The position numbers were made by a program, and so were the translations under genes. A DNA stretch of 64,000 nucleotides, taken from the IMG/VR virus record IMGVR_UViG_3300032030_000014, positions 3,919-67,918 of that record; one strand, 5' to 3'. This DNA comes from a virus. Below the pieces are notes generated by a model. The model was not told the DNA's origin. It searched no databases and was given only the letters and a program-made list of their open reading frames with translations. Position 1 is the stretch's first letter; each line of letters starts with the position of its first letter. Of the stretch, positions 18,882 to 23,159 are shown in pieces.

Positions 18882-20114
18882 TTGTTTGAATATAAAGAAA
18901 GTTATGCACATCCAACTAATATATGCTTAAATTTAACAGATGCTTGCAATTTAGCATGTAAGTACTGTTTTGTTGCATAGCAGCCTCATTATATGGATTA
19001 TGCAACAGCAAAAGATACTTTGGATTGGATTATGAAAAATAAAGAATGGAAAGAATAGCATGGTATAATCACAGATAAAACCTGTATTACTTTCTTTGGA
19101 GGAGAACCAACTCTTCTGTGGGATGAAATTATAGTCCCATTAACAGAATATAGAAATTCCAAGTACTCAAAAAAAGAATTAACCTTTAGTATTACCACTA
19201 ATGGAACTTTGTTAAATAAAGAACGATTATCTTTTATGAAAGAAAATGAATTTGGTATGCTTCTATCAATAGACGGTGGACCAGATACTTAGAATATTAA
19301 TCGTCCTTGTCATAATAAAAATATTAAATCTTTTGACTTAATAGTAAATAATATTCCAGATATTTTATATTATTATCCTTGGGTTACTTTTAGATCTACT
19401 ATTGATTAGTCAACTGTAGATAAAACTTTTGAAAATTATATTTTTGCTGAATATATGGGTTTTAAAAATATGTTTATGATGCCGAATGGTAGAGATCTAT
19501 GGAGTGAAAAAAATTTAAATATATTAAAAGAAGAATTTAAAAAAATTTATATGTATATGATTTCTTATTTTCAAATAGGCAGAATGCCCAATGTTAATTT
19601 TTCACCAATCAATGATAGTTTTACAAGGATAAAAGATTATAATGAACTCTTATTAAAATTAAAACATCCTCAATAGAGAAAATGCGTAAGATGCGGTTTA
19701 GGAACAGGATTAGGGTCCGTCGGATATGATGGTAAATTTTATGGATGTTAGGAACAAGATTCAAAAGAATTAGAATCTCATTTTTATATAGGAGATATTT
19801 ATAATGGCATTAATATAGAAAAACATAGTGCTTTATTACAAGAATATTTAAATATTTCTAAAACAACGTGCGGTGACAATCCATAGTATTGTTTAGATTG
19901 TCCACTAGACAAAATTTGTGGAGAACTAAATTGCCCATCTTCATCTTATGATTTATTTCAAGATTTTGGAAAAGATAATTATGTACATTGTTATTGGTTT
20001 AGACTAATGCATGAATTTTCAACTATTACTTTAAAATACTTAGAAAATAATCTTACTTTTTAGGAATATCTGTATAAAAATTGCCATTATGATTTTTTAA
20101 AGAAAGGAGAATGA
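18882..20114 (+). CDS. radical SAM enzyme with SPASM domain (second copy), 8 in-frame TAG codons, TTG start
   Basis: CNLACKYCF radical-SAM motif. SPASM Cys clusters (CVRCGLGTGLGS; CGDNP-TAG-YCLDCP). Frame open except for TAGs; ends TGA. RBS aaaagggtgag. Confidence 0.6.
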
Positions 20115-20123
20115 AATCTTTAT

Positions 20124-20819
20124 ATGAGTAGTTATTGTACTAATTGTTCTCCTTGTAATAGTTGTTAGGGAGAGTGTGTCAATTGTCAAAAATGTAATAA
20201 TGGATGTCAAATTTCTTGCGATACAGCATAGACTTGGTGTAATTTGGGGAAAGAAACTATTTCATTAGCTTGTGAGCAAGGTGATTTTGCTTTTTCATAT
20301 CGTCCAGTTGCTAATCTTGGTATTATAGGACCTGGTTATTTTGATTAGAACGTTTGGGATGAAATAGCTGCTTGGATTAGTAAAAGAGCAACACTTCCCA
20401 CAGAAACACCAGAAACTAAAGAAAAAGGCGCAGGTGCACCAGGAGGAACAACAAACGAAGTTGGAGGAACGGTTGTACTCGCCTCAGATTATAATGCAGT
20501 AGTCCCTTTTTCAGCAGATGAATTTAATCGTATAGCTCAAGAAGTTAATGGACCTACCGTTCGTTCTAATGACATAATTACCGCCGCAATTTTTTTACAA
20601 TTAGAGCAAGCTGCTAATAATAAAGAAATAGATTCAAATGCTTGTAAAATGTGTAATATAAATTGTGATAATTCTTGTGATATATGTGAAAAATGTGATG
20701 AATGTTAGGATTGCGAATAGTGTGAAGGATGCGTTAATTGTATGATGTGTGAAGGATGCTCTGGAGATTGTGAATACTGTAATGTAACTTGTGAATCAGG
20801 AAATTCAACAGAAGAATAA
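20124..20819 (+). CDS. Cys-rich protein (CxxC repeats at both termini) with 5 in-frame TAG codons; candidate rSAM substrate
   Basis: RBS aaaggagaatgaaatctttatatg. N-terminus MSSYCTNCSPCNSC; C-terminus CKMCNINCDNSCDICEKCDEC-TAG-DCE-TAG-CEGCVNCMMCEGCSGDCEYCNVTCE. Confidence 0.6.
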
Positions 20820-20837
20820 TAAAAAAGGAGAAAAATT

Positions 20838-23159
20838 ATGAAAAAATTTTTAAGTCTATTTCTAATTATGGCAATTCTTTTATCTATGCCAGTTATGGCA
20901 ATTAATTTCTCTGATGAAGATGAAATTAATTATACAGATGCTGTAACAGTTATGACAGGATTGGGAATTATTTAGGGCGATGATAATAACAATGATGGTA
21001 TTATGGAATTTCGACCTAAAGACAAAGTAACACGAGCCGAAGCAACAAAGATGATTGCTTATCTATTGTTGGGCGAAGACGCAGAAAAGCTTCCAGTTTC
21101 AGAAAGCGTTTTCACTGACGTCGATAATAATAGTTGGTATGCAAAATATATCAATTATTGTGCAGCCAGAAATATTGTCAAGGGCAGAGGTAATGGTATT
21201 TTCGATCCAAAAGGTGAAATCACTGGATCTGAACTTGCCGCAATTCTTCTACGTGCTATTGGATATGGCGTAAAGGGAGAATATGAAGGACCTTCTTGGG
21301 ATTTAAATGCTGTATCTGATGGTCTGACACTTGGATTGTTTGACGATTCTAAAGCAGTTAGTTACTCTGATGCTGCAACAAGAGAAGAAACTGCATTGTA
21401 TATTTATAATGTAATGGTAGATATTTACTAGGTTTATGAAGATGTTGATCTTAATACCTATGTCAGTCTCCGCAAAACTCTTGCTGAATCTGTATGGGGT
21501 CTAAAGTGGGTAGAAACAGAAGTATATTCTAACCAAGCAACAGGTAATGAATATACTATGACAAGCGATGGAAAATTTGATATTGAAACATCTCTTGAAG
21601 TAGTGGGTCATCAAGTGAAGATTTGGTATAAAGATAATCCATATAATCGTAATGTTCCAAAGGGCTATATCTGTAAGGATATTTCCTCAGTAAGTGCGCC
21701 TGGCGAGACATATGACGACCTTTATAGAGTTTTTGTTACTAAAAATCGCAAGAATGCTGATTTAAATCTCGCTGATATTTCTTGTTTGAATAACTACAAT
21801 GAAGTAAAAAATAATTTGCCTGATTTAGAGATTATTGAACTCAAGCGTGATGAACACGAGCACAAATTGACAGGCGTATTTGTATTTGATAAAAATGGCA
21901 TGGTAATGAATTATATGACTACTTCTTATACTATTGATTTAGTGCGTCGAGTAGATGATGAATTCATTTACCTAAGAAATTATGATGAAGAGATTGAGAA
22001 TACTTATAAGTTTGAAAAAGGTGATTATGTCACATTCTATACTGTTGGCGATTTGGTCTATTTGAAACCAACTACAACTAAGGTAGTGAAAATTTCTGAG
22101 CGTTCTCTCAAATATCCAGGCTATTTCAACAATATGACAATTGAACCTGGTGTCTACGATAGCAACATTCCTTTCTATAATGGTATTGATCAAGAAGACA
22201 TTGAAGTTGGAGATACTATCAGATTTTATCTTGACTGCGAAGGAAAATATTTCGGAGCAGAATTAGTAGAACCAAACGATCTATCTGGAATTGTTTTTGT
22301 TGTAAAGAGTTGGACCCGTGAGGTCGTAGACGATTGGGGCGAATTGACTGAGAGATCTTATGTCCAGTGTATTGATGAAAATGGAGAAGATACAGTTTAT
22401 AGACTTTCTGAAGAAGTTGAAGCTCCAGGAGTGTATAAAGTATATTCAAGACACGATAAGATTTATCTTGCCGCAGTTGAAAATTGCACTTTAAACAAGA
22501 AAGAAAATAAAACTTCTTATCTTGAAAAAGACGGTGATATTTATTACATTACCGATGACACCTCTATTTACTATATTTCTGGAGAAGGTAGTAATCTGAC
22601 CGTGACAAGAGCAAGTAAATTATCAAGTGAAGATAAGGGAACTTATTATGCAAATTATCATGGAGATTATGTAAAAACAGTATGGATTATTGGCGATGCT
22701 CCTGTAGTTTATGAAAATGATTATATTTTCATTTATAATGAGACACCAGCAGGTTCAATTCTATATAATGGCAACCCATATGACTATTATCATGCATATG
22801 TTGATGGTGTTTATAAAGAAAAGGCTATGATTGTTGCTGATGTAGAACTTGAACCAGGTTTTTATAGATATTCATTAAAAGATGGAGTTTACTACATTGA
22901 TAAGGGCCCAGTAGACAATGTAATTGAAACTCACTTTAGACAGGATTATATCTATAAGGATCATCTTTACTATGATGCCGACGGGATTTCTCTTAAAGAT
23001 ATTCAAATTGTAAATGTAGTTGATAATAAGGTTATCAGCGTAAATGAATTTGAAGATATGTTGAGAGATGAAGATTTCCGCGTAATAGTAACATATGCTT
23101 ATAAGATTAGCAATTCTAATAAAATTCCTGTCGCCGCAATCTATATAATTAAATATTAA
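20838..23159 (+). CDS. secreted SLH-domain protein (signal peptide, 2 S-layer-homology repeats, large beta-rich C-terminal domain), 2 in-frame TAG codons; 773 aa
   Basis: N-terminal signal peptide MKKFLSLFLIMAILLSMPVMA. SLH motifs (DAVTVMTGLGII..G and NSWYAKYINYCAARNIVKG...GEITGSELAAILLRA). One frame joins ORFs 21003..21431 and 21558..23159 across TAGs. Confidence 0.6.

Follow-up and report, generated by a model that had tools for sequence, protein, structure and literature searches.

A radical SAM enzyme and a cysteine-repeat protein form a conserved gene pair in large gut phages, a candidate thioether-crosslinking module

A 64-kb stretch of phage DNA (hereafter the window: 64,000 nucleotides of IMG/VR record IMGVR_UViG_3300032030_000014; near copies of this phage are present on contigs of 176-197 kb) carries three consecutive genes encoding a radical S-adenosylmethionine (SAM) enzyme, rSAM_B, a cysteine-rich protein, CysB, and a protein with S-layer homology (SLH) repeats (Table 1). 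The first two are a true module, genuinely coupled, that recurs in other phages, and on balance we favour the view that they constitute an autonomous, translationally coupled enzyme-substrate pair of large gut phages, in which rSAM_B would crosslink CysB through thioether bonds.

At every CysB locus examined, an rSAM_B ortholog (35-65% identical) lies directly upstream of the CysB-family gene, with a gap of 0-11 nt or with the stop and start codons overlapping. This arrangement is seen in the window's own lineage and in 11 others, TAG-recoded and non-recoded ones both included (loci L001, L002/3, L004, L005, L006, L007/8, L009, L010, L011, L012-15, L016-18 and L019-21), and it is because the adjacency is conserved in every lineage examined that we treat the two genes as a module. 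A first-pass annotation of this DNA, made from its letters, had coupled the enzyme to the Cys-rich protein and placed the SLH gene in the same unit; in related phages the coupling is borne out, whereas the SLH gene is not linked to the pair. In the other lineages with a visible downstream gene, the module is followed by a ClpP, GyrB-like, DUF2828 or small uncharacterised gene, never by an SLH gene. In two lineages (L007 1661-1963; L005 1225-1494), CysB is followed by a conserved basic protein of ~90-100 aa in which the motif HCSC..CS.KTRNKG occurs, and a degraded remnant of its N-terminus is present in the spacer between CysB and the gene for a Thg1-like protein in L011 (~850-915).

The distribution of the pair is apparently restricted to phages. 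A first search returned nine CysB homologs, and a profile search of 1.84 billion cluster representatives retrieved 212 CysB-family clusters at E<=1e-3 and 112 at E<=1e-10, counted at 50% identity, with the window CysB matching the family profile at 9.8e-58. Scans of genome contigs and of metagenome contigs gave one locus apiece, and IMG/VR scans with rSAM_B, CysB and the nine-sequence alignment gave no confirmed relatives. When positions 18000-24500 were compared with GenBank phages by blastn, the only matches were to tRNAs and to a portion of the Thg1 gene, and tblastn of CysB against phages returned no match, because the homolog in phage phAss-1 (L009, OQ749652.1) is too divergent for BLAST. 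This homolog was located by reading the gap beside the rSAM match and was then recognized by the family hidden Markov model (HMM; 5.5e-29): it is an unannotated open reading frame (ORF) of 174 aa at 5153-5677, with 3 TAG codons, between the rSAM gene and a GyrB-like gene. The phAss-1 record splits the rSAM gene into two coding sequences labelled 'hypothetical protein', the phAss-1 paper does not mention radical SAM, and our literature searches found no description of a phage system made of an rSAM enzyme and a Cys-rich protein.

rSAM_B matches the radical SAM profile PF04055 (2e-14; 54.5 bits against a cut-off of 29.5). In an alignment of eight orthologs, made after intein removal, the SAM-cluster motif CxxxCxxC (C22/C26/C29) is invariant, and so are, in 8/8 sequences, C15 and seven further cysteines (C271, C289, C337, C340, C346, C351 and C370) that fit the SPASM motif for two auxiliary clusters, C-x9-17-G-x4-C ... 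C-x2-C-x5-C-x3/4-C ... C. The TTG start and the number of TAG codons called at first pass were upheld, the orthologs beginning M(E/S)FEYK in agreement with that start. The best NCBIfam matches are PapB (178.3 bits), CcpM (131), QhpD (120), nif11-type (118), CXXX-repeat (94.4) and SCIFF (93), every one a maturase that acts on Cys-rich peptides or proteins, and the closest solved structure is that of the thioether-forming CteB (5WGG, 7.8e-14). Since the seven-cysteine motif is invariant and the alignments to the NCBIfam SPASM maturase models are full-length, a role for rSAM_B as a radical SAM/SPASM peptide or protein maturase is supported at the sequence level. The protein has only 21 residues before CxxxCxxC and ~40 after its last SPASM cysteine, while the CteB, SCIFF and CcpM alignments begin at positions 85-99 of those proteins; such a short N-terminal stretch leaves no space for a recognition element of the kind found in maturases of ribosomally made peptides with post-translational modifications (RiPPs), and rSAM_B thus lacks this RiPP recognition element (RRE) domain.

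In two lineages the rSAM_B ortholog carries an intein of 357-363 aa with a LAGLIDADG homing-endonuclease domain (L001 7659-10001; L019 5707-8001, also L020 and L021). The insertion site lies exactly at the third cysteine of the CxxxCxxC motif (...CKY|C-intein-HN|CFVAQ...), and these enzymes would therefore be active only once spliced. Distant rSAM matches in Campylobacter and Salmonella phages were rejected as members of the same system, being 23-24% identical and found in other contexts.

The description of the 231-aa CysB at first pass, with Cys repeats at both termini, proved accurate, all of its cysteines lying solely in the two arms (Table 1). What had been called a Gly/Thr-rich middle is, as the family alignment and an AlphaFold2 (AF2) model indicate, a conserved and mostly helical domain, interrupted at about residues 90-115 by a lineage-specific Gly/Thr/Pro-rich insert of about 17 residues. 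We defined the family by alignment, as proteins with CxxC repeats in an N-terminal arm, a centre with three motifs and a C-terminal arm with the signature A-C-x-x-C-N-x-x-C-D, encoded directly downstream of an rSAM_B ortholog, and the window ORF shows all of these features, its C-arm beginning with the signature. The order of an N-arm of CxxC/CxxxC repeats, a central domain and a C-arm is kept across the family, in which the number of cysteines ranges from 16 to 63 and the two arms are the sole regions of low complexity and variable length. Consecutive cysteines in the window CysB are spaced by 2 residues in 16 cases and by 3 in seven, and among 47 family members these spacings account for 50% and 22%, respectively. 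In the same 47 members, D/E/N/Q directly follows a cysteine in 70% of cases, compared with 17% for positions -1 and +2 and 25% overall, and fills position +4 in 54%. Half of the D/E/N/Q residues at +1 and +4 are amides rather than acids, and the repeats overlap. In the AF2 model, computed for a sequence (P0001) that differs by one residue from the window translation under the TAG=Gln code, pLDDT stays below 50 in the arms, which are disordered, and reaches 70-86 in the middle domain.

No Pfam, NCBIfam or PHROG model matched the window CysB. The 47 diverse members likewise had no Pfam match and a sole, marginal NCBIfam match to GroES (E=0.0088); relaxed PHROG scans of the central domains returned only noise, and the family profile found nothing below E=0.02 among PDB sequences. 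Two candidate assignments were discarded: a tail-fibre-like identity, which came from a 'TAADLNRIE'-type motif and found no profile support, and a ferredoxin motif in the N-arm, whose Cys spacing is not conserved.

We propose that rSAM_B, as a radical SAM enzyme that carries two auxiliary Fe-S clusters of the SPASM type but no RRE, would dock on the central helical domain of CysB, this contact replacing that between leader and RRE, and that 5'-deoxyadenosyl radical chemistry would install many intramolecular thioether (Cys-S-C) crosslinks in both repeat arms. Each cysteine would most likely be joined to an acidic or amide residue close by, at +1 or +4, and with sites so dense the rings would overlap, i.e., form a ladder; the product would then carry two rigid crosslinked ladders, resistant to reduction and to proteases, on a protein of ~200 aa. 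By analogy, CysB is probably stapled by rSAM_B through thioethers, because the enrichment of D/E/N/Q at +1 and +4 fits the logic of PapB and QhpD. PapB joins Cys thiols to Asp or Glu residues C-terminal of the cysteine, with Cys-X3-Asp as its native motif (PMC12373016), and QhpD forms three Cys-to-Asp/Glu bonds within QhpC, encoded in the same operon, as a roughly stoichiometric, single-turnover enzyme used about once (PMC7876137). Our preferred guess, weakly held, is that the CysB product is kept whole, as a late protein that may be associated with the virion, instead of being cut into small exported peptides.

A SPASM maturase with a Cys-rich target is a known kind of system, represented by ranthipeptides, sactipeptides, SCIFF, the CXXX-repeat system and QhpCD. 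The PapB/freyrasin-type ranthipeptide maturases (NF047865) are the top curated family for rSAM_B (2.2e-52, residues 13-348 aligned), but the score is about half the equivalog cut-off of 340, and PapB finds its substrate through leader-RRE binding (PMC12373016), a domain that rSAM_B lacks. The PapB substrate is a short leader-core peptide, whereas CysB-family proteins have 200-300 aa, with a folded middle and two repeat arms in which most cysteines have an acidic or amide residue at +4. Given a repeat period of 3-4 residues, the putative rings of CysB would overlap or interlock, unlike those of PapB products, and the rSAM_B system is phage-borne, unlike PapB.

QhpD (TIGR03906), which matures the gamma subunit of quinohemoprotein amine dehydrogenase, is the third-best NCBIfam match (1.1e-34), and its system resembles ours in having enzyme and substrate in one operon (PMC7876137). 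The score is nevertheless far from the cut-off of 453, and neither the window nor any related locus contains qhp genes. QhpC loses a 28-residue N-terminal leader to QhpE and is then exported, while no protease or transporter is conserved at CysB loci; it receives 3 links, compared with up to ~27 candidate cysteines in CysB, and has no sequence similarity to the CysB family. The CXXX-repeat system (TIGR04115/TIGR04117) is similar in that a SPASM maturase adjoins a protein of short Cys repeats, but rSAM_B stays far below the cut-off of 350, and CysB matches neither TIGR04117 nor phrog_6085, the family of the CysA protein described below. The repeat unit there is C-[TAGS]-x-x, that of CysB is C-[DENQ]-x(1-2), with repeats flanking a conserved domain on either side, and the gene order in the CXXX-repeat cassette of this phage is opposite to that of rSAM_B and CysB. 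The clostridial SPASM enzymes CteB/SCIFF and CcpM (5WGG; TIGR03974, TIGR04068) act on Cys-rich peptides of ~45-60 aa and have an N-terminal extension of ~85-100 residues that is missing from rSAM_B, whose scores are far under their cut-offs. What appears new in the rSAM_B-CysB pair, as judged from sequence comparisons, is the bipartite substrate with an internal conserved domain, the C-[DENQ] repeat of 3-4 residues, a substrate with no curated model and a seemingly phage-only occurrence.

Several points weigh against the proposed crosslinking. The enzyme-substrate chemistry is read from the two sequences; rSAM_B scores far under every NCBIfam equivalog cut-off, and across the module loci there is no conserved neighbour that is a protease, an exporter or clearly structural. 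The rSAM/SPASM assignment made at first pass stands on PF04055, the seven-cysteine motif and the NCBIfam alignments, but not on the Pfam SPASM profile PF13186, which rSAM_B does not match at E<=0.01 with the whole protein or at E<=10 with its C-terminal 156 aa (the second rSAM enzyme of the window, rSAM_A, reaches only 18.8 bits against a cut-off of 21.5). SPASM enzymes also carry out C-C crosslinking, Cys-to-formylglycine oxidation and other reactions, and repeats so dense in CxxC might do no more than bind metals or Fe-S clusters. That the enzyme docks on the central domain is suggested by the conservation of that domain and the missing RRE, and late expression by TAG density.

If the chemistry is as proposed, CysB might instead be a classical RiPP precursor, with the central domain as an internal leader and one or both arms cut off by a host or phage protease, the small thioether peptides being freed when the cell lyses, to act as bacteriocin, signal or anti-competitor factor. 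That the nearest families of rSAM_B are RiPP maturases, that the arms resemble repetitive core peptides and that a ClpP-family protease gene lies directly downstream of the module in one lineage (L001) would all suit such a role, and some RiPP classes, namely those with NHLP/Nif11 precursors, do have long leader-like domains. We consider it unlikely, however, since protease and exporter are not conserved across lineages, there is no double-glycine or other recognisable cleavage motif at the domain borders of CysB, and a leader with cores on both sides would be unprecedented. The lack of an RRE also sets rSAM_B apart from leader-dependent maturases such as PapB (PMC12373016).

A second possibility is that CysB resembles a metallothionein or a polyferredoxin, sequestering metal or feeding electrons or clusters to rSAM_B, whose true substrate would be elsewhere. 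Cysteines make up 11-12% of CysB with CxxC/CxxxC spacing, CxxCxxCxxxC stretches occur in the N-arm of the window protein, and radical SAM enzymes require reductants and Fe-S assembly. Yet CxxCxxCxxxC is not conserved, most members having plain CxxC runs and no Pro after the fourth cysteine; the arms, predicted to be disordered, do not have the hydrophobic scaffold of ferredoxin folds; and the frequency of D/E/N/Q directly after cysteine is not a metallothionein feature. A strict 1:1 translational coupling to a SPASM enzyme of the peptide-maturase type also suits an enzyme-substrate pair, and we regard metal binding as the function of CysB as distinctly improbable. Highly improbable, too, is that the same pair performs another chemistry, for example Cys-to-formylglycine oxidation as in anaerobic sulfatase-maturing enzymes (anSME) or C-C/C-O crosslinking: SPASM enzymes catalyse diverse reactions, full-length alignments are obtained with anSME models (TIGR03942, 71.6 bits, residues 20-387) and the PDB matches include anSME structures, but the top five NCBIfam matches are all thioether-forming or Cys-peptide maturases, the arms have almost no aromatic residues for cyclophane-type links, and no sulfatase-type C/S-x-P-x-R motif is present.

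The order of the genes in the window and their expression signals are given in Table 1. Under the standard code the region 18882-23159 is fragmented, whereas reading TAG as Gln yields three intact genes on the same strand, and with the hairpins that flank them the first-pass statement that the three lie between terminators could be confirmed. The intergenic gaps are 9 and 18 nt, each with a ribosome-binding site of the AGGAG type, no hairpin of comparable strength occurs inside the three-gene unit, and the region contains 10 terminator-like sites where 2.3 are expected. Judged by these signals, the three genes could plausibly be transcribed together in this phage.

Table 1. Features of the window discussed in the text (positions are those of the window)
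Feature	Position	Strand	Description
CysA-rSAM_A (cassette A)	2358..4502	+	CysA 2358-3125 (255 aa), then rSAM_A 3141-4502 (453 aa)
Intrinsic-terminator-like hairpin	18806..18837	+	14 bp stem then T-run; ends upstream Rv2632c-like gene
Sigma-70-like promoter	18822..18850	+	TTGACT-17-TATAAT; 11/12 match; -35 hexamer within terminator stem
rSAM_B	18882..20114	+	410 aa; TTG start; 8 TAG
CysB	20124..20819	+	231 aa; ATG start; 5 TAG; 27 Cys
CysB, N-terminal Cys-repeat arm	20136..20273	+	Residues 5-50; 11 Cys; C-[N/Q/D/S/T]-x(1-2) units
CysB, central conserved helical domain	20274..20642	+	Residues 51-173; motifs GPGYFD..W, PF.A.EFNR, I..F..L..AAN
CysB, C-terminal Cys-repeat arm	20643..20792	+	Residues 174-223; 16 Cys; mostly C-[D/E/N/Q]-x units
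SLH protein	20838..23159	+	773 aa; ATG start; 2 TAG
Bidirectional terminator-like hairpin	23165..23193		11-12 bp stem; closes operon
Suppressor tRNA, anticodon CTA	24736..24810	+	Required to decode TAG in all three genes
Second suppressor tRNA, anticodon CTA	25009..25083	+

TAG codons of the window genes align to invariant Gln residues of orthologs from non-recoding phages (Q137 and Q290 of the enzyme, Q36 of CysB), and TAG is therefore decoded as Gln in this phage, in which 35 tRNA genes, two of them with anticodon CTA, were found within the 64 kb. The share of TAG among Gln codons is 57% in rSAM_B, 45% in CysB, 71% in CysA and 40% in rSAM_A, and 0% in the Thg1, DUF2828, MVP-like and ligase genes of the window. 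Both rSAM cassettes thus rank among the most heavily TAG-recoded genes of the phage, which suggests that they act late in infection; with so high a TAG density, both rely on the suppressor tRNA. Other recoded phages offer an analogy for late expression of TAG-dependent genes (PMC10607447), by which both cassettes are probably late genes, and rSAM_B and CysB would be made only once the suppressor tRNA is active.

The third gene is a member of the SLH family: it scores 77.8 bits on PF00395 (cut-off 20.8), so that the SLH assignment made at first pass survives the profile search, with repeats at residues 22-197 that carry TRAE-like motifs, two stretches lying above threshold and a degenerate third one carrying ATREE. 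Residues 1-21, MKKFLSLFLIMAILLSMPVMA, look by inspection like a signal peptide, and this signal-like N-terminus is conserved in the one distinct homolog of the protein (L022). SLH modules anchor S-layer proteins and some phage endolysins, but the endolysin family phrog_670 aligns only to the SLH region of the window protein, and no catalytic or known domain was detected in its other 576 residues. This Tyr-rich C-terminal part has no Pfam match at E<=10, BLAST finds no repeats within it and its homologs form only two clusters among 5.8 billion proteins; the AF2 model of the protein, built on a two-sequence alignment, has a pLDDT of 35.

Comparison of three phages shows that the SLH gene and the rSAM_B-CysB pair occupy the same place independently. 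In the window phage, and in L004, which is the same phage, the order is Rv2632c-like gene, terminator/promoter, rSAM, CysB, SLH, terminator, Thg1. In L011, whose Thg1 is 89% identical to that of the window, rSAM and CysB are followed after ~170 nt by Thg1, and there is no SLH gene; in L022 (SLH 55% and Thg1 75% identical), the Rv2632c-like gene and the same terminator/promoter precede an unrelated 309-aa gene, SLH and Thg1, and there is no module. The L022 gene (9014-9943, 3 TAG) encodes a Ser/Thr/Gly/Tyr-rich protein with no family beyond a sub-threshold thioredoxin match (E=0.18), and since it fills the promoter-proximal slot, the place immediately upstream of the SLH gene is one at which cargo genes are exchanged. 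In view of these reciprocal absences, the stretch from the Rv2632c-like gene to Thg1 is a variable cargo slot in which the SLH gene and the rSAM_B-CysB pair are independent occupants. The SLH gene lies outside the conserved module, as a probably co-transcribed passenger; it would be an independent cargo gene, encoding a secreted protein that binds a secondary cell-wall polymer, and in this phage it happens to use the promoter of the pair.

The idea of a three-gene surface unit, put forward at first pass, in which the host envelope or the virion would bear a crosslinked Cys protein presented together with, or by, the SLH protein, is the least probable of those considered: one promoter and one terminator, the short gaps in the window phage and the near-identical L004, TAG codons in all three genes, and an SLH protein of L012 encoded beside a tail-fibre-like gene speak for it, but it is countered by the L011 and L022 arrangements at the same genomic slot, by the missing SLH gene in every other lineage with a visible downstream gene, by the two homolog clusters of the SLH C-terminal domain against hundreds for CysB, and by the lack of a signal peptide on CysB, so that nothing ties CysB to the cell surface. 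The notion of an SLH-linked surface structure should be dropped.

SLH proteins do recur in this phage group at other positions. In L012 (1-1538) and L015 (1-1208), a protein of 878-886 aa is encoded directly upstream of the tail-fibre-like gene (Mtd_N + Phage_fiber_rpt), ~5-7 kb from the rSAM module. The small Rv2632c-like protein (window 18356-18802, weak PF08962 match) is found upstream of the module in three lineages, with genes at L012 5306-5641 and L019 ~5334-5597 and also in L022 (8589-8927), which is without the module; in the window a strong terminator splits its gene from the module.

A second rSAM/Cys-rich cassette, reported at first pass, is indeed present in the window (cassette A). 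rSAM_A scores 352.4 on TIGR04115, the 'CXXX-repeat target' family, just above the cut-off of 350, and in CysA ~35 T/G/A/S-rich CxxxC repeats come after an N-terminal domain, the protein having a weak TIGR04117 match and a match to phrog_6085, a family of unknown function. CysA and CysB have in common a weak 19-residue motif just upstream of the repeats. The two enzymes had been called paralogous; they are only 23% identical and belong to different subfamilies, and are not recent paralogs.

The same order of Cys protein then rSAM enzyme is found in the fecal phage contig L028 (1526-2116). In the Salmonella jumbo phage SEGD1 (L029, KU726251.1), two CxxxC-repeat ORFs of 134 and 68 aa, on the minus strand at 271-675 and 49-255, are flanked by a 'putative virion structural protein' on one side and two radical SAM genes on the other, and GenBank annotates other frames over this DNA (SEGD1_169 and SEGD1_170, with Ala/Val/Leu-rich products). 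Pairs of Cys-repeat and rSAM genes thus seem to exist, mis-annotated, in cultivable SPN3US-like phages, which could serve as an experimental proxy.

It is tempting, though speculative and at present doubtful, to extend the proposal to large phages that infect Gram-positive bacteria of the gut and, by way of the related CxxxC system, possibly to SPN3US-like jumbo phages: with dedicated radical SAM enzymes, these would build ladder-like poly-thioether proteins, as redox- and protease-proof structural or effector proteins for the reducing, anaerobic gut where disulfides fail, recognition occurring through an internal folded docking domain between two cores, a precursor layout not known so far from RiPPs or crosslinked proteins. 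Should thioether stapling of CysB be correct, it would define a phage-specific family of post-translationally stapled proteins, of at least 212 clusters and without a Pfam, NCBIfam or PHROGs model, and a maturase that operates without an RRE on a bipartite substrate. Radical-SAM thioether chemistry would then reach viral proteins, beyond small bacterial peptides, and an unexplored layer of gut phage biology would come into view; the compact, leader-independent enzyme-substrate pair could be of use for engineering multiply crosslinked scaffolds. For annotation, the lesson is that such genes are missed or mis-framed in GenBank phage records, as in phAss-1 and SEGD1.

The genes of the window fall into two composition classes, and its GC content varies from 0.26 to 0.47 along its length. 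TAG-free genes have ~45% GC and use CAG almost exclusively for Gln (e.g., 28044-29585, 30761-33271, 38323-39669 and 43141-44619), while TAG-rich ones have ~30-35% GC and use CAA and TAG (2358-4502, 18882-23159 and 54540-56657); these classes may correspond to early and late gene sets or to mosaic ancestry. Within the tRNA array, ARAGORN calls a tRNA-like gene at 7824-7902 with an undetermined anticodon (a two-base call, 'gc'). A Thg1-like tRNA-His guanylyltransferase (PF04446, 5.5e-26) is encoded at 23251-24087, adjoining tRNA arrays, and further genes of the window are one for a DUF2828/DUF7788 protein and an ORF of 836 aa; counterparts of this ORF in L002 and L022 match the major-vault-protein shoulder (PF11978). 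The coordinates listed jointly for these three genes are 23251-24087, 30761-33271 and 28044-29585, and all three recur in related phages.

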